A DNA stretch of 64,000 bases. Origin: Pseudomonadota bacterium (lineage in GTDB: Bacteria; Pseudomonadota; Alphaproteobacteria; G022571365). Both the position numbers and the translations under genes were made by a program. The notes beneath the pieces are model-generated. The model saw nothing but the letters and a program-made list of their open reading frames with translations. It was not told the origin of the DNA and made no database searches. This document shows, piece by piece, positions 2,913 to 53,212 of the stretch; position 1 is the first letter of the stretch, and each line of letters opens with the position of its first letter. Where the stretch lies: NCBI GenBank assembly GCA_022571365.1, contig JACZXZ010000002.1, positions 14,402 to 78,401 of the forward strand. The letters run 5' to 3'.

Positions 2913-3989
2913 ATGAACGAGGAGGCAATCCTGGAGCTCCAAAAGGTGAGTCATGCCTTCGGCCCGCTGCTGGCGCTCGACGATGTCAGCCTGACGATCG
3001 CGCCGGGCGAGCTGGTGTGCCTGGTGGGGCCTTCGGGCTGCGGCAAAACCACGTTGTTGCGCGTCGCCGCCGGCCTCGAGGAGCTGCAACAGGGCGGTAT
3101 CGCCATCGACGGCCGGACCGTGGCCGGTCGCGGCGCGCACATGCCGCCGGAAGAGCGCGGCGTGGGCCTGGTGTTTCAGGATTACGCGCTGTTCCCCCAT
3201 CTTTCGGTGCTCGACAATGTGGGCTTCGGTCTACGCGGGCAGCCCGCGGCCCAGCGCCGCATGCGCTCGCTCGAGATCCTGGAGCAGCTCGGGGTGGCCG
3301 GTCTCGCCCGGAACTTTCCCCACACGCTCTCCGGCGGTCAGCAACAGCGCGTCGCGCTGGCCCGCGCGCTTGCGCCAAAGCCCCGTTTGATGCTGCTGGA
3401 CGAGCCGTTTTCAGACCTCGACGCACGGCTCAGGGAACGGGTCCGGGACGAGACCCTGCACCTTCTCAAAAAGGCCGCCGCGGCCAGCCTGATCGTTACC
3501 CACGACCCGGACGAGGCCATGTTCATGGCCGAGCGGATAGCGGTTATGCGCGCCGGCCGAATCGTCCAGCTGGGCCGTCCGGCCGAGATCTACCTTCATC
3601 CGACGAACGCCTTCGTCGCCAGCCTCTTCAGCGAGGTCAACCGCATCGACGGCGTGGTTTCCGGCGGTGGGGTGGAGACCCCGTTCGGCATCCTCGACGC
3701 CAAGCATCTCGCCGACGGCACTGAAGTCCAGGTCTTGATCCGGCCCGAGGCGCTCAAGCTGGCCTGGGCCGGCGAAGGGGAGGCCGACCTCAACGTCGGC
3801 AGGGTCGTGACCGCTCGAATGCTGGGCCGCAGCACCCTCATCCATCTTCATCTCGGCCACTTCAACGGCCGGCCCTTGCACCTGCACAGCCGGGTGCCCG
3901 GCTACGTCGCCTTCGCCGAGGGCGACGACGTGACCGTAGGCCTCGATATCAGCCAAGCCTTTGTTTTCCCCAGAGATGACCCTACCTAG
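2913..3989 (+). CDS. ABC transporter ATP-binding protein with C-terminal TOBE-like domain (FbpC/PotA-like)
   Basis: Walker A GPSGCGKTT, ABC signature LSGGQQQRVALARAL, Walker B LLLDEP; ~120 aa C-terminal extension. Confidence 0.88.
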   Translation: MNEEAILELQKVSHAFGPLLALDDVSLTIAPGELVCLVGPSGCGKTTLLRVAAGLEELQQGGIAIDGRTVAGRGAHMPPEERGVGLVFQDYALFPHLSVLDNVGFGLRGQPAAQRRMRSLEILEQLGVAGLARNFPHTLSGGQQQRVALARALAPKPRLMLLDEPFSDLDARLRERVRDETLHLLKKAAAASLIVTHDPDEAMFMAERIAVMRAGRIVQLGRPAEIYLHPTNAFVASLFSEVNRIDGVVSGGGVETPFGILDAKHLADGTEVQVLIRPEALKLAWAGEGEADLNVGRVVTARMLGRSTLIHLHLGHFNGRPLHLHSRVPGYVAFAEGDDVTVGLDISQAFVFPRDDPT

Positions 3990-4086
3990 AAGGGCAGGTA
4001 ATATGCCGGCGTTGCAGGATGGACGTATTTTTGCCATCATCCACCGGTTGTACCGAAGCGGAGAAAACAACTAAGGAGCGACTAGG

Positions 4087-4338
4087 ATGGGGAGTTTCAG
4101 CATCTGGCATTGGCTTGTCGTTCTCGCTGTTATCCTTCTTCTTTTCGGCGGCAGCGGCAAGATATCGAAACTCATGGGCGATACGGCGCGGGGCATCAAG
4201 TCCTTCAAGAAAGGCCTCAAGGAGGAAGAGGAAGAGGAACCCGTCGTTGAGAATCAACCCCAGAAGGCCTTGAAGTCGGAAACGGCGGCGCCGGCCGCCG
4301 AGACCACCACGCAGAAGGACGAGGCGACCAAAAGCTGA
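4087..4338 (+). CDS. tatA: Twin-arginine translocase subunit TatA
   Basis: 83 aa; N-terminal TM helix then [24 protein letters not shown] amphipathic helix; acidic tail. Confidence 0.85.
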
Positions 4339-4392
4339 CGGCTTGAGCGGGACGCCATTCCCCTCGTCATTCACGGAAGGGGCTGACCTCTG

Positions 4393-5079
4393 ATGTTCGA
4401 CCTCGGTTGGTCCGAAATGATGATCATCGCCACGGTGGTGCTGATCATCTTCGGACCGAAGGACCTGCCGAAGGTCCTCAAGACCGCGACCTTTTGGATG
4501 CGCAAGGGCCGGGCGCTCGCCAAGGAGTTCCGGAACGGTCTCGATGAAATAGTCCGGGAAGCCGAACTGGATGAGCTCAAGAAGGACCTCGAATCGGCGA
4601 CGCGCTACGACCTGAAGGGGGAGATGGAAAAAACCATCGACCCGACCGGCAGCCTCGTCAAAGCCCTCGATGCGCCGGACGAACTCACCAAGTCGAAGGC
4701 CGAACCCGCGGCGGCGGGCGACACCGAGGCCAAGCCCAAGGCCGAACCCGCGGCGGCGGGCGACACCGAGGCCAAGCCCAAGGCCGAACCCGCGGCAGGG
4801 GACGACACCGAGGCCAAGCCCAAGGCCGAACCCGCGGCGGCGGGCGACACCGCGGCCAAGCCCAAGGCCGAACCCGCGGCGGCGGGCGACACCGCGGCCA
4901 AGCCCAAGGCCGAACCCGCGGCGGCGGGCGACACCGCGGCCAAGCCCAAGGCCGAACCCGCGGCGGCGGGCGACACCGCGGCCAAGCCCAAGGCCGAACC
5001 CGCGGCGGGGGGCACATCGAGGCCCAGACGAGGGAAGGCGAATCGAAGGCCGGCGGTGGAAAACGCGAGGAGCCGCTAA
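4393..5079 (+). CDS. tatB: Twin-arginine translocase subunit TatB with repetitive C-terminal extension
   Basis: MFDLGWSEMMIIATVVLIIFGPKDLPKVLKT... TatB-type N-terminus; C-terminal half is 7 tandem copies of KAEPAAAGDT(E/A)AKP. Confidence 0.8.
   Translation: MFDLGWSEMMIIATVVLIIFGPKDLPKVLKTATFWMRKGRALAKEFRNGLDEIVREAELDELKKDLESATRYDLKGEMEKTIDPTGSLVKALDAPDELTKSKAEPAAAGDTEAKPKAEPAAAGDTEAKPKAEPAAGDDTEAKPKAEPAAAGDTAAKPKAEPAAAGDTAAKPKAEPAAAGDTAAKPKAEPAAAGDTAAKPKAEPAAGGTSRPRRGKANRRPAVENARSR
4696..5010 (+). repeat. 42-bp tandem repeat, about 7.5 copies, inside tatB coding sequence
   Basis: AAGGCCGAACCCGCGGCGGCGGGCGACACCG(A/C)GGCCAAGCCC repeated head-to-tail; copies 1-3 carry GAG, copies 4-7 GCG, copy 3 carries AGDD variant. 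Confidence 0.9.
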
Positions 5080-5166
5080 CGGGGGATGCCCTGGTGGCGG
5101 CGAAATCTGAGGGGGCCTAAGAAAGTGGCCGAAGAAGCCGCAGGCGAGGAGCGTGAGGAGAAAAAG

Positions 5167-5928
5167 ATGCCGATGCTCTCCCATCTGGGGGAGCTCCGCA
5201 ATCGGCTGATCTATTCCTTCATTGCCTTCATCATCGCGTTTTTCGCCTTTTTCTACGTGGCCGAGGACATATTCGCGTTCCTGGTCAGGCCGTTAGCCCG
5301 GGTCATGGAGAAGGAGACCGGCGGGCGCATGATTTACACCGCCCTGCACGAGGCGTTCTTCACCTACGTCAAGGTGGCGTTCTTCAGCGCGGCCTTTGTG
5401 TCCTTTCCGGTCGTCGCCGGCCAGATCTGGGCGTTCGTCGCGCCGGGCCTCTACAAGAACGAAAAACGGGCCTTCCTACCCTTCCTCGTCGCGACCCCCA
5501 TCCTGTTCATTATGGGCGCCGCGCTCGTCTATTACCTTATTTTCCCGCTTGCCTGGCAGTTCTTCCTGGGCTTCCAGACGCCGAGCAGCGAGGGCATGCT
5601 GGCCATCGAGATCGAGCCCAAGATCAACGAGTATCTCTCCCTGGTCATGCGGCTGATCTTCGCCTTCGGCGTCGGCTTCCAGCTTCCGGTGTTGCTGTTG
5701 CTGATGGCGCGGGCCGGCCTGGTGACCGCCAAGGGCCTCGCCGCCAAGCGCAAATACGCCATCGTCCTGGCCTTCATCGCCGCCGCGATCCTGACCCCGC
5801 CGGACGTCATCAGCCAAGTCGGCCTGGCCCTGCCGATCCTCCTGCTCTACGAGATATCCATCTTCCTGGTCCGCCTGTCCGAGAAACGGCGGGCTGCCAA
5901 GGAGGCGGCCGAAGAGGCCGAGAGCTAG
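5167..5928 (+). CDS. tatC: Twin-arginine translocase subunit TatC
   Basis: MPMLSHLGELRNRLIYSFIAFIIAF... canonical TatC N-terminus and 6 TM segments; GAGGAG RBS before ATG 5167 (ORF track begins 5086). Confidence 0.85.
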   Translation: MPMLSHLGELRNRLIYSFIAFIIAFFAFFYVAEDIFAFLVRPLARVMEKETGGRMIYTALHEAFFTYVKVAFFSAAFVSFPVVAGQIWAFVAPGLYKNEKRAFLPFLVATPILFIMGAALVYYLIFPLAWQFFLGFQTPSSEGMLAIEIEPKINEYLSLVMRLIFAFGVGFQLPVLLLLMARAGLVTAKGLAAKRKYAIVLAFIAAAILTPPDVISQVGLALPILLLYEISIFLVRLSEKRRAAKEAAEEAES

Positions 5929-6064
5929 GACAAAGCGCGGGGAAACCGATTTCAACCCGGGCTTTTGACCCCGCGCGGCGGTGGACGCGGCCCGCACCGC
6001 GACCTATAAGAGCACGCCGGCACACGGCGCTTGGTATTGAGTTTCGCGGAAACGCAAGTCGTAT

Positions 6065-6170
6065 TCCTGGCCCTCATGCTTCGACAGGCTCAGCACGACG
6101 GCTTCGACAAGCTCGGTATGAGGACTTCGACAGGCTCAGCATGAGGGCATAAGCATGCGTTCGATCCTGA
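6065..6170. repeat. Composite intergenic repeat element (REP/MITE-like) upstream of serS
   Basis: Inverted ends GCCCTCATGC ... GCATGAGGGC enclosing two direct copies of CTTCGACAGGCTCAGCA plus a degenerate third (CTTCGACAAGCTCGG). Confidence 0.35.
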
Positions 6171-6240
6171 GCCGCTCGAGGGGCGAGGCCCGTCTCGCGT
6201 ATCTACGATAGTACGTAGCTAGTCACGACGACGGTTCCCG

Positions 6241-7518
6241 ATGTTCGATCTCAAATGGATCCGCGACAATTCGGCGGCCTTCGACGCCGGGCTCAAGGCC
6301 CGCGGCGTGGGGCCGACAGCCGCGCGCGTCATCGCGCTCGACGAGAAGCGCCGCGAGGCGCTCACCGCCGCCCAAGAAATCCAGGCCCGGCGCAACAAGC
6401 TGTCCAAGGAGATCGGCATCGCCAAGACCAAGGGCGAGGACGTGAGCGGGATGATCCGCGCCGTATCGGCCGAGGAAGAGCTCCAGGCTGAAGCCGAGGA
6501 ACGGGTGCGGCAATTGGCCGCCGGGCTCGACGAGCTGCTCGAAGGCCTGCCCAACCTGGCGGCCGATGACGTGCCGGTGGGGGAGGACGCCAGCGCCAAC
6601 GTCGTCTTGCGCACCGTCGGCGTGAGGCCCGAATTCGACTTCACGCCCAAGGAGCATTTCGAGATCGGCGCGGGGCTGGGCCAGATGGACTTCGAGCGGG
6701 CGGCGAAGATGTCCGGGGCGCGGTTCGTCGTGCTCACCGGCGCGCTCGCCCGGCTCGAGCGGGCGCTCGCCCAGTTCATGCTCGACCTCCACACCACCGA
6801 GTTCGGCTACACGGAAGTGAGCCCGCCGCTCTTGGTGCGGGACGATGCTGTGTTCGGCACCGGGCAGTTGCCGAAATTCGGCGCCGATTTGTTCCGCACC
6901 ACCGACGATTACTGGCTAATCCCGACGGCCGAGGTGCCGCTCACCAACCTGGTGCGCGAGCGGATTCTCGACGAGGGCGACCTGCCGCTCCGATTCACCG
7001 CCTTCACCGGCTGCTTCCGCTCCGAAGCCGGAGCCGCCGGCAAGGACACCCGCGGCATGTTGCGCCAGCACCAATTCTACAAGGTCGAGCTGGTCAGCAT
7101 CACCCATCCCGACCACTCGGAGGCCGAACTCGAGCGCATGACGTCCTGCGCCGAGGAGGTGTTGAAACGGCTCGGGCTCCACTACCAGGTGGTGGTCCTG
7201 TCCACCAGCGACATGGGATTTGCCGCGCGCAAGACCCTCGACATCGAGGTCTGGCTGCCCGGCCAGGAGGCCTACCGCGAGATTTCCAGCTGCTCGAACT
7301 GCTGGGACTTCCAGGCCCGGCGCATGAAGGCGCGCTTCAAGCCGGCGGGGGGCAAGGGCACGCGCTTCGTCCACACCCTCAATGGCTCCGGCCTTGCCGT
7401 CGGGCGCACCCTGATCGCGCTGCTGGAGCACTACCAGCGCGCCGACGGCTCGGTCGAGATGCCGACGGCCTTAAGACCCTATATGGACGGGCTCGAGGTC
7501 TTGACCGCCGATGTTTAA
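6241..7518 (+). CDS. serS: Seryl-tRNA synthetase
   Basis: 425 aa; N-terminal coiled-coil arm, class II motifs ([21 protein letters not shown]; [15 protein letters not shown]). Confidence 0.95.
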
Positions 7519-20676: not shown

Positions 20677-23598
20677 TTGACCACGCCGCCCGCACCGCCT
20701 GAATACGACATCACGATCGTGAGCCTCGAGGAGGAGATGAAGCACTCCTACCTCGACTACGCCATGAGCGTGATCGTGGCCCGCGCGCTGCCCGACGTGC
20801 GCGACGGGCTGAAGCCGGTCCACCGCCGCATCCTTTACGCCATGAAGGAGGGCGGCTACGACCGGGCCAAGCCGTTCCGCAAGTCGGCGCGCATCGTCGG
20901 CGACGTCATGGGCAAGTACCACCCCCACGGCGACGCCGCCATCTACGACGCCATGGTGCGCATGGCCCAGGATTTCTCCATGCGGCTCATGCTCATCGAA
21001 GGGCAGGGCAATTTCGGCTCCATGGACGGCGACCCGCCGGCCGCCATGCGTTACACCGAGGCGCGGCTCGCCCGCTCGGCCGAGGCGATTCTCGAGGATT
21101 TCGACAAGGGCACGGTCGACTTCAAGCCCAGTTACGACGGCAACGCCCAAGAGCCCGCCGTGCTGCCGGCCCGGTTTCCCAACCTGCTGGTCAACGGCGC
21201 CGGCGGTATCGCCGTCGGCATGGCGACCAACATCCCGACCCACAACCTGGGCGAGGTGATCGACGCCTGCTGTGCCTACGTGGACAATCCTGAGATCACC
21301 ATCGACGAGCTGATGGAGCACCTGCCGGGGCCGGACTTCCCGACCGCCGGCATCATACTCGGCAGAACGGGCATCCACGAAGCGTATCACACCGGTCGTG
21401 GCTCCATCGTCATGCGCGGACGCGCCGAAATCGAGGAGATCCGCAAGGATCGCCAGGCCATCGTCATCACCGAGATCCCGTATCAGGTCAACAAGTCGCG
21501 GATGGTCGAGCGCATCGCCGAGCTGGTTAGGGATAAGACCATCGAGGGCATCGTCGATCTGCGCGACGAGTCCGATCGCCACGGCGTCCGCGTGGTGGTC
21601 GAGGTCAGGCGCGATATCATCCCCGAGGTGGTGTTGAACCAGCTCTACCGTTACACGCCACTGCAGACCAGCTTCGGCGTCAACATGCTGGCCTTGAACC
21701 GCGGCCAGCCGGAGATGATGAATCTCAAGGACATCATCGCCCTCTTTATCGACTTCCGCGAGCAGGTCATCACCCGGCGCACGATATTCGAACTCAACAA
21801 AGCGCGGGCGCGCTCCCACATCCTGCTCGGCCTCGCCATCGCCGTGATCAACCTGGATCCGGTGATCGCGCTGATCCGCAAGGCTTCCGATCCGGCGGCC
21901 GCGCGGGCCGCGCTCAGGAAGCCGCCGTGGCCGGCCGGCGAGATGGAGGCGCTGATCCGCATGATCGACGAGCCGGAACAGAGCCTTAAGGACGGCGCCT
22001 ACCGCCTGTCGGAAGAGCAGGCGAAGGCGATATTGGAGCTCAGGCTCCATCGCTTGACCGGGCTCGAGCGCGACAAGATCGTCGAGGACTTGAAGGCGCT
22101 CGTCGATCAGATCTCCGGATATCTCGAGATCCTCGGCTCCCGGGAGCGCCTTTTGGAGATCCTGCGCCGCGAGCTTCAGGAGATGAAGGAGGAATTCGCG
22201 ACCCCGCGCCGCACCCAGATCGAGGAGATCGAGTTCGAGCACGACATCGAGGACCTGATCCAGCGCGAGGAGATGGTCGTCACCGTCACGCACACCGGCT
22301 ACATCAAACGGGTGCCGCTGTCGACCTACCGGGCGCAGCGCCGCGGCGGCAAGGGCCGGGCCGGCATGGCCACCCGCGAGGAGGACTTCGTCAGCCAGGT
22401 CTTCGTCGTCAACACCCACACCCCGGTCCTGTTCTTCTCCTCGCGCGGCATCGTCTACAAGATGAAGGTCTACAGGCTGCCCTTGGGCGCCCCGCAGGCG
22501 CGCGGCAAGGCGCTGGTCAATCTGTTGCCGCTGGAGGAGGAAGAGACGATCACCACCCTGATGCCCATGCCCGAGGACGAGCAAAGCTGGGGCGAACTCC
22601 ACGTCATGTTCGCCACCTCGGCCGGCCATGTCCGGCGCAACAAGCTGTCGGATTTCGTAAACGTCATGGCCAAAGGCAAGATCGCCATGAAGCTCAAGAA
22701 CGGCGACCAGCTCGTCGGCGTTCAGACCTGCACCGAGGACGACGACGTGTTGTTCGCCACCGGCGGCGGCAAGTGCATCCGCTTTCCGGCCACCGACGTC
22801 CGGGTGTTCAGCGGCCGCTCCTCGATCGGCGTCAGGGGCATCAGACTAGCCTCGGGCGATAAGGTCATTTCGATGTCGATTCTCACCCACATCGCAGCCG
22901 ACCCGAAGGATCGGGAGGAATACCTGCAAGCAGTCAACGCCAAGCACCGGCTTGCCAGCACCGAGTACACCGGCAAATCGGAGGAGAAAGCCCGCGATGA
23001 GCAGCGCGCCGCGCGGCTTGACGAGCAAAATTTCGTCGAGATGGCCGAGCACGAGGAGTTCATCCTGACGGTTGCCGAGAATGGTTTCGGCAAGCGTACC
23101 TCGGGTTACGACTACCGGATCGCCCGGCGCGGCGGCAAAGGCATCGGCAGCATGGAGCTGGAGCGCGACGGGAACGCCGTGGTCGCGGCGTTTACTGTCA
23201 CCGACGACGATCAGATCATATTGATGACCGACGGCGGGCAGATCATTCGATGCCCGGTGAATGACATTCGCGTCGCGCGGCGCGCCACCAGGGGAGTCAC
23301 CGTGTTCAAGCTCGCGGAAGGCGAGAAGGTGGTGTCGGTGTCGCGCCTCGGTGACGTCGGCGTCGAAGGCGACGGAGAAGAAGCAGGCGACGGAGAAGAA
23401 GCAGGCGAGGGCGAAGAGGCGGCGGACGGAGCGGCGGAATCGGAGGCGACGACCGTGGAGGACGACGGCAAGGGGGATGGTGGAGCGACGGCATCGGAGG
23501 CGACGGCCGTGGAGGACGACGGCAAGGGGGATGGTGGAGCGGCGGAATCGGAGGCGACGGCCGTGGAGGACGACGGCAAGGGGGACGGAGAACAATGA
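20677..23598 (+). CDS. gyrA: DNA gyrase subunit A
   Basis: 973 aa; [36 protein letters not shown] region, active-site Tyr region (AAMRYTE), C-terminal beta-pinwheel repeats and acidic tail; TTG start at 20677. Confidence 0.97.
23380..23590 (+). repeat. Tandem repeats encoding the GyrA acidic C-terminal tail (18-bp x2 then ~60-bp x3)
   Basis: GGCGACGGAGAAGAAGCA x2; GGAGCG(A/G)CGG(C/A)ATCGGAGGCGACG(G/A)CCGTGGAGGACGACGGCAAGGGGGATGGT x3 giving [16 protein letters not shown] repeats. Confidence 0.85.
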
Positions 23599-47315: not shown

Positions 47316-48926
47316 ATGCCCGGGCTCCAGCCCGCTAACCGAACGGCCTACTATATCACCACGCCGATCTACTACGTGAACGACGCCCCCCACATCGGTC
47401 ACGCGTACACGAGCCTTGCCTGTGACGTGCTGGCCCGGTTCATGCGGCTCGACGGCTACGAGGTCAAGTTCCTGACCGGTACCGACGAGCACGGCCAGAA
47501 GGTGGAGAAGTCGGCCACGGCGGCGGGGATGGAGCCAGGGGCCTTCACCGACAAGATGTCGGAGAACTTCCGGACGCTCTCCCACGCCATGAACTTCAGC
47601 AATGACGATTTCATCCGGACCACGGAGCCGCGCCACATCGCCGCTTGCCAGGCCCTGTGGCGGGAGTTGAAGGCGCGCGACCAAATCTATCTCGGCGTCT
47701 ATGCCGGCTGGTACGCGGTGCGCGACGAGACGTACTACACCGAAAGCGAGGTCGTCGAAGGCCCGGACGGCAAGAGGGTGGCCCCGACCGGGGCCGAGGT
47801 CGAATGGGTCGAGGAGCCGAGCTATTTCTTCCGGCTTTCGGCCTGGCAGGAGCCGCTTTTACAGCTCTACGAGGACAATCCCGACTGCATCGCGCCCGAC
47901 AGCCGGCGCAACGAGGTCGTCAGCTTCGTCAGGAGCGGGCTCAAGGATCTGTCCATCTCCCGCACCAGCTTCAAGTGGGGCGTGGCGGTTCCCGACGACC
48001 CCGACCATGTCATGTATGTCTGGCTCGACGCGCTCACCAATTACATCACCGCGGTCGGCTATCCGGACGCGGAAGGGAAGGGGTTCACCCGCTTCTGGCC
48101 CGCCGACCTGCACGTGGTGGGCAAGGATATCCTCCGGTTTCACGCGGTCTACTGGCCGGCCTTCCTCATGGCCGCGGGACTCGAGCCGCCCAAGCGCGTT
48201 TTTGCCCACGGCTGGTGGACCAACGAAGGCCAGAAAATCTCCAAATCCCTGGGCAACATCATCGAACCCCTGCATCTGGTGGAGGAATACGGGCTCGACG
48301 CGGTGCGCTATTTCCTCCTGCGCGAGGTCCCCTTCGGCAATGACGGCGATTTTTCCCACCGGGCCATCATCGGCCGCGTCAATGGGGATCTCGCGAACGA
48401 CTTCGGCAACCTCGCCCAGCGCGTGCTGTCGATGATCCACAAGGACTGCGGGGGACAGGTGCCAGATCCGACGGACAAGGTGGATTACAAAAGGGATGCC
48501 GAGTCCCTGAGCGCATTGACCGGCGCCCATGAGCTGATCGGATCGCTGCGGCCAATCATGGCTCGTCAGGCCTTTCACGAGGCGCTTGAGTTGATCTGGG
48601 ACGTCGTTCGTGAAGCGAACCGTTATGTCGACAAACAGGCGCCTTGGGCGTTGAGGAAAACGGATCCCGCGCAGATGGATGCCGTTCTCTATGTCCTGGT
48701 GGAAGTCCTGCGCCATCTGGCGATCGTGCTTTGGCCGTTTATGCCTGGTTCATGCGACCGCCTACTGGACCAGCTTGCCGTCCCGAAAAAGGCGCGCGAC
48801 TTTGACTGCCTGACGACCGACCCCGATCGCTTCAGGAACGCTCACTCGCTTAAACCAGGGACCGCCCTGCCCAAGCCCGAAGGCGTCTTCCCGCGCTATG
48901 TGGAGGCGAAGGAGAAGACCGCGTGA
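47316..48926 (+). CDS. metG: Methionyl-tRNA synthetase (short form without C-terminal tRNA-binding domain)
   Basis: HIGH motif (APHIGHAYT), KMSKS motif (KISKSLGN), 536 aa. Confidence 0.95.
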   Translation: MPGLQPANRTAYYITTPIYYVNDAPHIGHAYTSLACDVLARFMRLDGYEVKFLTGTDEHGQKVEKSATAAGMEPGAFTDKMSENFRTLSHAMNFSNDDFIRTTEPRHIAACQALWRELKARDQIYLGVYAGWYAVRDETYYTESEVVEGPDGKRVAPTGAEVEWVEEPSYFFRLSAWQEPLLQLYEDNPDCIAPDSRRNEVVSFVRSGLKDLSISRTSFKWGVAVPDDPDHVMYVWLDALTNYITAVGYPDAEGKGFTRFWPADLHVVGKDILRFHAVYWPAFLMAAGLEPPKRVFAHGWWTNEGQKISKSLGNIIEPLHLVEEYGLDAVRYFLLREVPFGNDGDFSHRAIIGRVNGDLANDFGNLAQRVLSMIHKDCGGQVPDPTDKVDYKRDAESLSALTGAHELIGSLRPIMARQAFHEALELIWDVVREANRYVDKQAPWALRKTDPAQMDAVLYVLVEVLRHLAIVLWPFMPGSCDRLLDQLAVPKKARDFDCLTTDPDRFRNAHSLKPGTALPKPEGVFPRYVEAKEKTA

Positions 48927-49738
48927 CGCTGGTGGACAGCCACTGTCATCTCGATTTTCCGGATTTCGCGGGCGAGCTCGACGCGGTCATCGCCCGGGCC
49001 GCCGCCGCCGGTGTCGGCGTCATGGTGACGATCTGCACCAAATTGAGCGCCTTCGATCGGGTGCTCGCCATCGCCGAGACCCATGACAACGTCTATTGCT
49101 CGGTCGGGGTCCACCCGCACGAGGCGGCGGGCGAGGGGGTAGAGGAACCCGATCGCCTGATCGCGCTGGCACGTCATCCCAAGGTGGTCGGCATCGGCGA
49201 GACCGGACTCGACTACCACTACGAGCACAGCCCAAGGGAGGCCCAGCAGGAAAGCTTCCGAGCCCATATCGGCGCGGCGCGGGAGACGGGCCTGCCACTC
49301 ATTGTCCATACCCGCAAGGCCGATGAGGACACCGCCCGGATTCTTCGGGAGGAAACCGCGATCGGACCGTTTACAGGCCTCATACATTGCTTTAGCACAT
49401 CTAGAGAACTAGCTGAAATTGCTATGAAACTTGGATTCTACATCTCCCTTTCGGGGATCGTTACCTTCGAGAAAGCCGGCGATCTTCGGGCAATTGTCCA
49501 GAATCTGCCGCTCGAGAGGCTCCTGGTCGAGACCGACGCACCCTACCTGGCGCCGGCACCGATGCGGGGTAAGCGGAATGAACCCGCCTTCGTCGTCCAC
49601 ACGGCCGAGGCCGTCGCGGCGCTCAAAGGAATGGCGCCGGAGGCTTTTGCGCGGGCGACCAGCGATAACTTCTTCCGCCTGTTCCAGAAGGTCCAGACGC
49701 CAACGTCCGCGCGGCTTTCCGCAACGGCACGCGGGTAA
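48923..49738 (+). CDS. tatD: TatD family metal-dependent hydrolase
   Basis: VDSHCHLDF start, conserved His/Glu/Asp metal ligands (GVHPHEA; GETGLDYHY; HCFS; ETDAPYL). Confidence 0.9.
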   Translation: MTLVDSHCHLDFPDFAGELDAVIARAAAAGVGVMVTICTKLSAFDRVLAIAETHDNVYCSVGVHPHEAAGEGVEEPDRLIALARHPKVVGIGETGLDYHYEHSPREAQQESFRAHIGAARETGLPLIVHTRKADEDTARILREETAIGPFTGLIHCFSTSRELAEIAMKLGFYISLSGIVTFEKAGDLRAIVQNLPLERLLVETDAPYLAPAPMRGKRNEPAFVVHTAEAVAALKGMAPEAFARATSDNFFRLFQKVQTPTSARLSATARG

Positions 49739-50020
49739 CCATTGCGGGCCGCGAGGACGGCGAAGTAGCCACCGCCGCAGACCACCACAGCGCTTGGATA
49801 GGGACGGTTCGAGGGAACGGTTCGAGGGGCCGGATTCCTCGAACCCTTGGACAGAGGTCAAAACAACCCTTATTATTTACCATAATATACATTATGCGCT
49901 AAATTTATATGGCGGCATCGCCCGCCGGGCCAAGCGCCCTCTCGCCTTCCTCCCCGCTCCCTCTGTCCACCAATTTTCCCGGCCGATGGCACCGCTCACG
50001 GTGAAAGGTCTCGATTAACC

Positions 50021-50120
50021 GCTGAATCCCGTTGAATCCCGTTGAATCCCGCTGAATCCCGTTGAATCCCGCTGAATCCCGTTGAATCCCGCTGAATCCC
50101 GCTGAATTCTGCTGAATCTT
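50021..50120. repeat. 10-bp tandem repeat array (G[C/T]TGAATCCC), 8 perfect + 2 degenerate copies
   Basis: GCTGAATCCC GTTGAATCCC GTTGAATCCC GCTGAATCCC GTTGAATCCC GCTGAATCCC GTTGAATCCC GCTGAATCCC GCTGAATTCT GCTGAATCTT within an ~850-bp non-coding gap. Confidence 0.9.
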
Positions 50121-50595: not shown

Positions 50596-51402
50596 TCAGT
50601 CGGCGGCGAACCTGTCCCGAAGCATCCGCCAACTCGCCTCATCAGGGGCAAGCAGGAAGTTGCCGGCGGTGAGCGTCGGCCGGTAGGGCGTGCCGTCGAG
50701 GCAAGCGTTGTAACCGCCGGCCTCGCCGTGAATCAAAGCGCCCGCGGCGTGATCCCAGGGCCAAAGCCGGGTGAACAGGCCGAAATGCGTCTCGCCGCGG
50801 GCCAGCGCCAGATATTCGTGGCCGACGCAGCGGCGGTAAATGGCGGCGCCGAGTCCCTTCTTGCGCTCGGCGAGGTCGGGCGTAATTCCAGGCCGGCCTG
50901 GGCGGGCATAGACGGCGCCCCGCATTTGCTCCGGCGCGGCGGCCGCGGCGACGTGCAGACGCCGCTTCCCAATCCAGACCCCCTCGCCTTGCGCGGCCAT
51001 CACCGTCTCGCCGCCGAGCGGATCGTGAATCCAGGCGGCCGCGGTGCGCCCGCGCACGACAAAGGCCACTATCATGGCGAACGGTGGCTTGCCGTCGGCG
51101 AAATTGGCCGTGCCGTCCAGGGGATCGATGATCCAGACGGGCGCTTTGCCCGCGAGATTGCCCAGGATCGTCGGGTCCTGATCGACCGCTTCCTCACCGA
51201 CCACCAACGACCCCGGGATGAGCTCCCGGAACGCGCGCGTCAGCCGCCGCTCGGCGGCCAGGTCGGCTACCGTGACCAGGTCGCCCGGCTGTTTCTCCCT
51301 CACCTCGCTCGCCGCGAGCCGCTTGAAGCGCGGCAGGATATCGACCGCGGCGGCCTCGCGGATCAACCGCTCGACCCTGTCCATATCGGGTGTCATAGGC
51401 AT
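50596..51402 (-). CDS. Inositol monophosphatase family protein
   Basis: WIIDPLDGTANF metal-binding motif and second Asp motif region; start at MPMTPDMDRV (ORF track extends through an upstream duplicated segment). Confidence 0.8.
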   Translation of the reverse strand: MPMTPDMDRVERLIREAAAVDILPRFKRLAASEVREKQPGDLVTVADLAAERRLTRAFRELIPGSLVVGEEAVDQDPTILGNLAGKAPVWIIDPLDGTANFADGKPPFAMIVAFVVRGRTAAAWIHDPLGGETVMAAQGEGVWIGKRRLHVAAAAAPEQMRGAVYARPGRPGITPDLAERKKGLGAAIYRRCVGHEYLALARGETHFGLFTRLWPWDHAAGALIHGEAGGYNACLDGTPYRPTLTAGNFLLAPDEASWRMLRDRFAAD

Positions 51403-51530
51403 GTTCGACGGTAGCACGGACGCTCGGAAGAAAAAGGGGCCGCGCGGATCAACCGCTCGACCCTGTCCATATCGGGTGTCATAGGCATGTTCGACGGTAG
51501 CACGGACGCTCGGAAGAAAAAGGGGCCGCG
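51359..51530. repeat. 86-bp perfect tandem duplication covering the IMPase start codon region and half of the groEL terminator
   Basis: CGGATCAACCGCTCGACCCTGTCCATATCGGGTGTCATAGGCATGTTCGACGGTAGCACGGACGCTCGGAAGAAAAAGGGGCCGCG present twice head-to-tail (51359-51444, 51445-51530). Confidence 0.9.
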
Positions 51531-51545
51531 TGGCACGCGGCCCCT
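51510..51545 (-). terminator. Rho-independent terminator of groESL
   Basis: 10-bp GC stem AGGGGCCGCG/CGCGGCCCCT with 5-nt loop, followed on the minus strand by TTTTTCTTCC; 27 bp past the groEL stop. Confidence 0.75.
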
Positions 51546-51571
51546 GAAAAACCAAGATTCGGTCGGGCCGG

Positions 51572-53212
<1,641 letters not shown>

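Follow-up and report, generated by a model that had tools for sequence, protein, structure and literature searches.

The Tat pathway is essential in certain bacteria and dispensable in others. In an uncultured alphaproteobacterium the gene for one of its subunits, TatB, contains a 42-bp sequence repeated head to tail in its 3' part. This raises the question whether the number of copies differs between strains, and what a change in this number would mean for the translocase. We analysed the surrounding stretch of 64,000 nucleotides, called the window in the following, together with related contigs from metagenomes. With a probability of roughly 0.75, the array is a coding minisatellite (VNTR) in the disordered C-terminal tail of TatB, which is tolerated and drifts almost neutrally.

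The tatB gene and its product

The operon containing the repeat is composed as follows.

4087-4338, + strand: tatA, 83 aa, first gene of the tat operon (NF001940 TatA/TatE 105.4 bits, cut-off 83; PF02416)
4393-5079, + strand: tatB, 228 aa, holding the repeat (TIGR01410 67.4 bits; PF02416)
5167-5928, + strand: tatC (TIGR00945 218 bits; PF00902 239 bits)
6241-7518: serS, 3' of tatC, in the operon tatA-tatB-tatC-serS

The gene had been named tatB in an earlier note on this DNA, and this assignment holds: the TIGR01410 profile matches residues 2-80 above its curated cut-off of 56.5 bits, and the gene is located between tatA and tatC. PF02416 (TatA_B_E) scored 29.8 bits on tatB (cut-off 21). The order tatA-tatB-tatC was also found in all ten related contigs long enough to show the gene order.

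For tatC, three in-frame start candidates are present at 5086, 5125 (GTG) and 5167 (ATG), and depending on the assembly TatC is called by gene callers as a protein of 280, 267 or 253 aa. A Shine-Dalgarno sequence (GAGGAG) lies 6 nt in front of the ATG at 5167, and the matching residue is where the family model begins. TatA comprises 85 aa in one related contig (L009, 4688-4945) compared to 83 aa elsewhere, owing to a 6-nt indel; the length of the TatA tail may be variable, too.

The part of tatB in front of the array encodes the conserved portion of the protein.

4393-4695, + strand: conserved TatB module, residues 1-101 (transmembrane helix, Gly-Pro hinge, amphipathic helix, short helices)

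The best matches of the window TatB among solved structures were E. coli TatB 9dzz_B and 2mi2_A, the alignment covering E. coli residues 1-86. Both proteins share the transmembrane helix with E8, the Gly-Pro hinge, the amphipathic helix and the short helices (2MI2, 9DZZ). E8, G21 and P22 do not vary in an alignment of 37 sequences. From this alignment, AlphaFold2 predicted helices at residues 7-20 (transmembrane helix), 22-56 (amphipathic helix), 59-70, 74-82 and 87-92, with Gly21-Pro22 as the hinge and a pLDDT of 70-87 across residues 1-50. Residues 93-228 were predicted as coil (pLDDT about 45-58, in the array portion about 45-56), and the array starts at residue 102, inside this coil. Matches of Pfam and NCBIfam models to the window TatB were confined to the N-terminal module, with none over the repeat units.

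The earlier note had assumed that the array replaces the unstructured tail of TatB. According to the AlphaFold2 model, the array is instead itself predicted to be unstructured and lies within that tail. A hydrophilic unstructured tail beginning near residue 96-100 is also a property of E. coli TatB, where transport persists after its removal. In contrast to E. coli TatB, the tail of the window protein consists of a 42-bp array with polymorphic copy number and a basic end of 22 residues derived from a frameshift.

The 42-bp array in the window

4696-4989, + strand: seven full in-frame units of 14 aa each (units 1-3 E-type, units 4-7 A-type)

Tandem Repeats Finder reported a single array at 4688-5024 (period 42, 8.0 copies, 95% matches, no indels, score 590), which is the top-scoring tandem repeat of the 64-kb window. 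The 30-nt core of the unit matched seven times at an exact spacing of 42 bp (4696, 4738 and so on up to 4948), compared to no match in 100 dinucleotide-preserving shuffles. In the tatB frame, units 1 and 2 each read KAEPAAAGDTEAKP, unit 3 reads KAEPAAGDDTEAKP and units 4-7 each read KAEPAAAGDTAAKP. Units 1 and 2 are identical at the DNA level as well, and so are units 4-7 among each other. These adjacent identical units indicate recent duplication.

Thus, the seven tandem copies of a 14-residue unit were described correctly before, and the reported variants were confirmed exactly, with GAG in units 1-3 and GCG in units 4-7 at codon 11 and one GDD copy. The extent of 4696-5010 given for the array was right for the seven units, which end at 4989; position 5010 falls within an eighth unit that had been overlooked.

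The 42 nt of a unit correspond to 14 codons, and the frame of the array is continuous with that of the TatB N-terminal domain. The unit contains a GCG-GCG-GCG run and encodes a linker rich in Ala, Pro, Lys, Glu, Asp and Thr. The G+C content of the array DNA is 79%, compared to about 60% elsewhere in tatB. Between 4700 and 4999 there is not a single T on the + strand (AT skew 1.0).

The eighth unit and the shifted C-terminus

The 3' end of tatB and the adjacent spacer contain the following features.

4990-5030, + strand: eighth unit, shorter by 1 nt (deletion between 5013 and 5014; aligned with the consensus unit)
5014-5079, + strand: out-of-frame basic C-terminus TSRPRRGKANRRPAVENARSR, 22 residues, plus stop (translation)
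5080-5120, + strand: remnant of the unshifted frame, HIEAQTREGESKAGGGKREEPLTGDALVAAKSEGA plus stop, open to the TAA at 5118-5120; now the tatB-tatC spacer

In a global alignment the eighth unit matches the consensus at about 36 of 41 nt (23 of 24 before the single-base gap and about 13 of 17 after it). Because of the 1-nt deletion, the final 22 residues of the protein are read in another frame than the units and are strongly basic. Without the deletion the eighth unit would read KAEPAAGGDIEAQT, and the protein would run on as REGESKAGGGKREEPLTGDALVAAKSEGA to the TAA at 5118-5120, which is located 5 nt before the GTG at 5125.

The shifted eighth unit was present in every allele and locus examined, and the terminus ...KANRRP[A/V]VENARSR was found in 18 of 18 TatB proteins of the clade, followed by TAA or TGA as stop codon depending on the lineage. 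Since it is common to all of these proteins and loci, the frameshift is a fixed ancestral change and not a sequencing error.

We infer the direction of the frameshift, from the unit frame to the present basic end, mainly from the alignment of the eighth unit. Comparison with other TatB proteins adds to this to a small extent. The nearest outgroup protein (P0137) is 62% identical across the TatB N-terminal domain. In BLASTP, the sequence with the restored unshifted tail aligns to it through the tail with 118 bits, versus 115 bits with the real tail, for which the alignment ends at residue 93. This gain of 3 bits lends weak backing to an originally unshifted frame. Neither the frame-1 tail nor the unshifted-frame tail showed similarity to an outgroup when 136 TatB homologues were searched by BLAST, and the tails of distant TatBs are not conserved. 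GC3 values of 74% and 73% do not discriminate between the two frames.

Copy number among relatives

The TatB proteins in the two closest 90%-identity clusters have lengths of 144, 158, 172, 186, 200, 214 and 228 aa, which are exact steps of 14 aa; the window TatB is identical to one of them (P0133). For comparison at the DNA level we used 17 distinct contigs from ENA and NCBI, all of them metagenome assemblies. In the flanks, these contigs share 95.2-99.9% identity with the window and among each other. The DNA of the N-terminal module is 99-100% identical in loci of lineages A and B and 95-96% in lineage C. SerS is 92-100% identical inside this group, and the next relatives follow at 82% (P0370) and then at 74% or less. 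Judged by these identities, the window and the 17 contigs form a single clade at the level of a species, that of an uncultured alphaproteobacterium. JGI metagenome contigs, scanned for exact copies of a 41-mer of the tail and a 30-mer of the N-domain, gave no match.

The numbers of full units are given below; in each locus the shifted eighth-type unit comes after them.

7 full units: window, L008
6 full units: L006
5 full units: L009
4 full units: L004, L007
3 full units: L005, L012, L018
2 full units: L011, L020
1 full unit: L010, L013, L017

All alleles are known from metagenome assemblies, and the counts, including the seven of the window, are to be read at assembly level. At this level one to seven units occur behind flanks of 95-99.9% identity, which bears out the proposal that the copy number varies between strains. 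A fixed count in close relatives, named in the earlier note as a sign of an old stable feature, was not seen (1-7 units). The description as a hypervariable slipped-strand locus is likewise supported at assembly level, with slippage changing only the length of the tail.

The counts could also be a product of assembly, with a single and probably long true count and the series from one to seven units arising by collapse or truncation of short-read data. The array does disturb assemblies. Gaps of 100 N lie within it in L014 (about 3323-3422) and L019 (about 3248-3347), which contain at least six and at least four units, respectively, and owing to these gaps tatB is uncalled in both. The SPAdes contig of L022 ends in the array at 3206, and a scaffold gap of 100 N follows directly after the array of L020, from about 3290. 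Contigs assembled by MEGAHIT (k141) hold at most four units.

Furthermore, the longest perfectly 42-periodic stretch comprises 197 bp in the window (4812-5008) and at most 125 bp in all other assemblies. The 197 bp exceed a read length of 150 nt, a value which we assumed. Long homogeneous arrays are probably under-represented or collapsed in assemblies. The difference between the window and the other assemblies suggests such censoring or collapse, and the count of four identical A-type units in the window is therefore uncertain.

Two of the shorter arrays resemble a longer one minus internal units, with flanks 99.9% identical. L006 and L010 have six units and one unit, respectively, although their flanks agree at all but 4 of 6503 positions. 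The single unit of L010 is chimeric, its 5' part corresponding to that of unit 1 and its 3' part to that of unit 6 of L006, and the array of L018 corresponds to that of L006 minus units 4-6. Chimeric units of this kind are expected from real deletions and are also a product of collapsed assembly.

Several points speak against assembly as the source of the whole series. One or two units plus the last unit amount to 84-126 bp, which can be spanned by reads of about 150 nt (the assumed length), and a junction missing from the reads should break a contig and not be invented. The alleles differ not in unit number alone but also in unit sequence (P0001, P0124, P0131, P0127, P0136), and several counts occur inside each of the three lineages. 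From one sample (ERZ27267515) a 3-unit and a 4-unit allele were both recovered, on different contigs. All seven units of L008 are distinct in sequence, so that this count is not an assembly expansion; L008 and the four-unit L004 are resolvable by a unique marker in each unit. We regard a purely artefactual series as unlikely.

The units also carry a signature of the lineage. Codons 6-8 read AAG in lineage A, TGG or AGS in lineage B, and AEG or AGG in lineage C. These motifs indicate homogenisation of the units within lineages.

Drift and constraint in the TatB tail

For a coding minisatellite, whole 42-bp units would be gained and lost by replication slippage or by unequal recombination between near-identical units, which is the likely mechanism. 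Each change of one unit would stay in frame and lengthen or shorten the Ala/Pro/Lys/Glu/Asp/Thr-rich linker by 14 residues. Since the tail past about residue 100 is unneeded in E. coli TatB, which serves as the model here, such changes may be tolerated and drift almost neutrally. The outcome would be alleles of one to seven units, and perhaps more, in a single species, with unit variants that are homogenised and specific to each lineage. The 1-nt deletion in the last unit would be an older event, fixed clade-wide, by which an acidic end was exchanged for the basic end of 22 residues.

In E. coli, TatB is a random coil from residue 96, and the truncated proteins 1-111 and 1-121 are wild-type-like in transport and quality control (PMC9436932). 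Quality control depends in part on the membrane-extrinsic domain of E. coli TatB, for which a chaperone-like activity is also described (PMC9436932). The quality-control effect maps up to residues about 101-123 and not to the distal coil (PMC9436932).

Among 42 units we counted 19 non-synonymous and 8 synonymous non-consensus codon states, corresponding to an omega-like ratio of 0.81 per site for the array, a value based on small counts. The summed pN/pS values of the neighbouring genes, with tatB represented by its N-terminal module, were lower, as listed here.

ABC ATPase: 0.14
serS: 0.26
tatB N-terminal module: 0.36
tatC: 0.51
tatA: 0.62

The substitution pattern is consistent with relaxed, almost neutral evolution of the array. 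Taken together with the truncation work in E. coli, the small substitution counts suggest that changes in tail length are functionally neutral. Two codons, 5 (Ala) and 9 (Asp), do not vary among the 42 units; this may point to some constraint or be due to recent common descent alone.

Alternatively, it might be that selection maintains the allele series and that tail length and the basic terminus modulate the TatBC receptor, for example by substrate caging, folding quality control or interaction with anionic lipids. The role of the E. coli membrane-extrinsic domain in quality control would fit with this, as would the two invariant codons, the conservation of the basic terminus in all alleles and the occurrence of similar A/P/K-rich repeats in other alphaproteobacterial TatB tails. 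Against it stand the mapping of the E. coli quality-control effect to about residue 101-123 or before, the predicted disorder of the tail (AlphaFold2) and the ratio of about 0.8 for the units. Furthermore, unit number shows no pattern with lineage, and invariant codons are to be expected anyway among recently duplicated units. Altogether, we consider selected length tuning improbable. The stricter claim, that tail length and basic terminus are functional and under selection and that the natural series of 1 to 7 or more units tunes TatBC, has long odds against it. If it were true, the TatB tail would vary in length in the manner of a contingency locus, within a core machine of protein export, and the alleles would tune the handling of folded substrates or the association with the membrane or cytoplasmic partners.

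A phase-variable contingency locus, in which slippage toggles TatB or, by polarity, TatC, is very unlikely. A highly repetitive tract is present inside the coding sequence of an operon gene, and one unit did suffer a frameshift. This frameshift is a fixed point deletion in all lineages, not a reversible switch. Gain or loss of a unit keeps the frame, and 18 of 18 alleles are in frame with the same terminus and stop position. On/off switching does not take place, since the unit comprises 3 x 14 nt and no allele is truncated; a phase-variation switch was ruled out by this unit length.

Rarity of the array and comparison with known systems

Bacterial coding VNTRs are characterised by in-frame near-identical units, a strain-variable count, conserved flanks and a location in extended or disordered parts of proteins. 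Most of those described are found in surface or secreted proteins, and their variation is thought to be selected. In contrast to these, the TatB array belongs to a subunit of a membrane translocase and lies in its cytoplasmic tail. It has the instability of the repeat, presumably by strand slippage, in common with simple-sequence contingency loci. It differs from them by a unit length that is a multiple of three, by alleles that are all in frame and by the lack of on/off switching. Flexible linkers rich in Ala, Pro and charged residues, with which the TatB tail may be compared, are known from TolA, TonB and the E2 component of 2-oxo-acid dehydrogenases.

We determined how common repeats in TatB tails are in a sample of the 119 nearest TatBs, which were picked on the basis of the N-terminal domain only. 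These proteins have a median length of 155 aa and a maximum of 177 aa, compared to 228 aa for the window TatB. Tails were long enough for a test in 109 of them, and a significant tandem repeat was found in 6 of these 109. The best was KAAPR x 4.2 (P0223), with a unit of 5 aa. That TatB C-termini are usually non-repetitive, as stated in the earlier note, agrees with these numbers (6 of 109 repetitive, none above 4.2 copies of 5 aa). In a second sample, which was collected with the full-length query and is thus biased to A/K/P-rich tails, we found arrays of a 16-aa unit x 4.4 (P0102) and of PAQTA x 6 (P0062). The TatB tail of P0075 contains PAKTA/PAETA x 5. These alphaproteobacterial tails (P0102, P0062, P0075 and P0223) resemble the window TatB in having Ala/Pro/Lys/Thr/Glu-rich head-to-tail repeats in the same region of the protein, but their unit sequences are unrelated and their arrays are shorter.

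A phmmer search with the array against 1.84 billion representatives resulted in 67 matches with E <= 0.001, and the ten matches inspected were unrelated low-complexity proteins with period 14. The clade's own representative was the sole recognised TatB carrying the unit in this search. Among the titles and abstracts listed for TatB and 'tandem repeat' in the literature, none dealt with a repeat in TatB. The TatB array is clade-specific and the largest seen in this analysis, and both short repeats in TatB tails and coding VNTRs in disordered segments are known in kind. It reveals no new mechanism and is a fairly ordinary coding minisatellite.

The locus is of modest interest for other reasons. 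It offers a natural series of alleles in which the tail of a Tat receptor subunit is extended by about 14 to 98 residues. The series could be used to test whether the 'dispensable' C-terminal domain has a length-dependent role in a non-model alphaproteobacterial TatB. The array could also act as a strain marker for a widely sampled uncultured alphaproteobacterium. For metagenome studies it is a warning, as the locus breaks or gaps assemblies, alters the gene calls of tatB and tatC and yields long spurious ORFs.

Overlapping reading frames and other repeats in the window

Four long ORFs overlap the supported tatB gene.

4670-5110, + strand: repeat-driven spurious ORF
4605-5015, - strand: repeat-driven spurious ORF
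4685-5017, - strand: repeat-driven spurious ORF
3982-5184, - strand: repeat-driven spurious ORF

A Pfam search of these four ORFs gave no family in any of them, and genes in the overlapping frames were rejected on this result. This agrees with the earlier remark that the repeat creates long spurious ORFs in other frames and on the opposite strand. That the repeat codes for a protein in one of the other frames or on the - strand, where such long ORFs exist, or for a structured nucleic-acid element can practically be dismissed: the ORFs match no Pfam family, Rfam gave no family in or near the repeat region of tatB, two units folded as single-strand DNA did not exceed composition-matched shuffles in stability (z = -1.2 and 0.1), and the tatB frame is continuous with an N-terminal domain supported by its family.

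Repeats are found at further positions in the window. The gyrA gene (20677-23598, + strand) encodes a GyrA with PF00521, six PF03989 blades and an acidic tandem-repeat tail. At its 3' end (23367-23585) a unit of 18 bp (GDGEEA-like) is repeated 3.6 times and one of 54 bp 2.9 times with 95% identity. The gyrA tail is the second in-frame C-terminal repeat in a housekeeping gene of the window, which hints at a genome-wide tendency.

At 50019-50118, ten 10-bp copies are arranged head to tail, CCGCTGAATC alternating with CCGTTGAATC (90% matches). They lie within roughly 850 nt without a supported gene, flanked by a gene for a TatD-family DNase (48923-49738, + strand) and an inositol-monophosphatase gene (50596-51555, - strand). 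The periodicity of one helical turn suggests a candidate array of phased binding sites. Another repeat, an 86-bp unit x 2.1 with 98% identity, is located at 51352-51530 in the 5' end of the inositol-monophosphatase gene and adjoins a chaperonin-family (Cpn60/TCP-1) gene (51572-53200, - strand).

The spacer between tatC and serS contains a block of about 195-210 nt (about 6027-6238) with 3-4 copies of CTTCGACAGGCTCAGCATGAGG, including a 23-bp x 3.1 repeat at 6078-6148. The block is present in lineages A and C and missing from lineage B (L007), where the spacer comprises 118 nt compared to 312 nt. It looks like a small inserted repeat element, and its motif presumably resembles the widespread dispersed repeat of the 'FDKLRMR' type of Proteobacteria.
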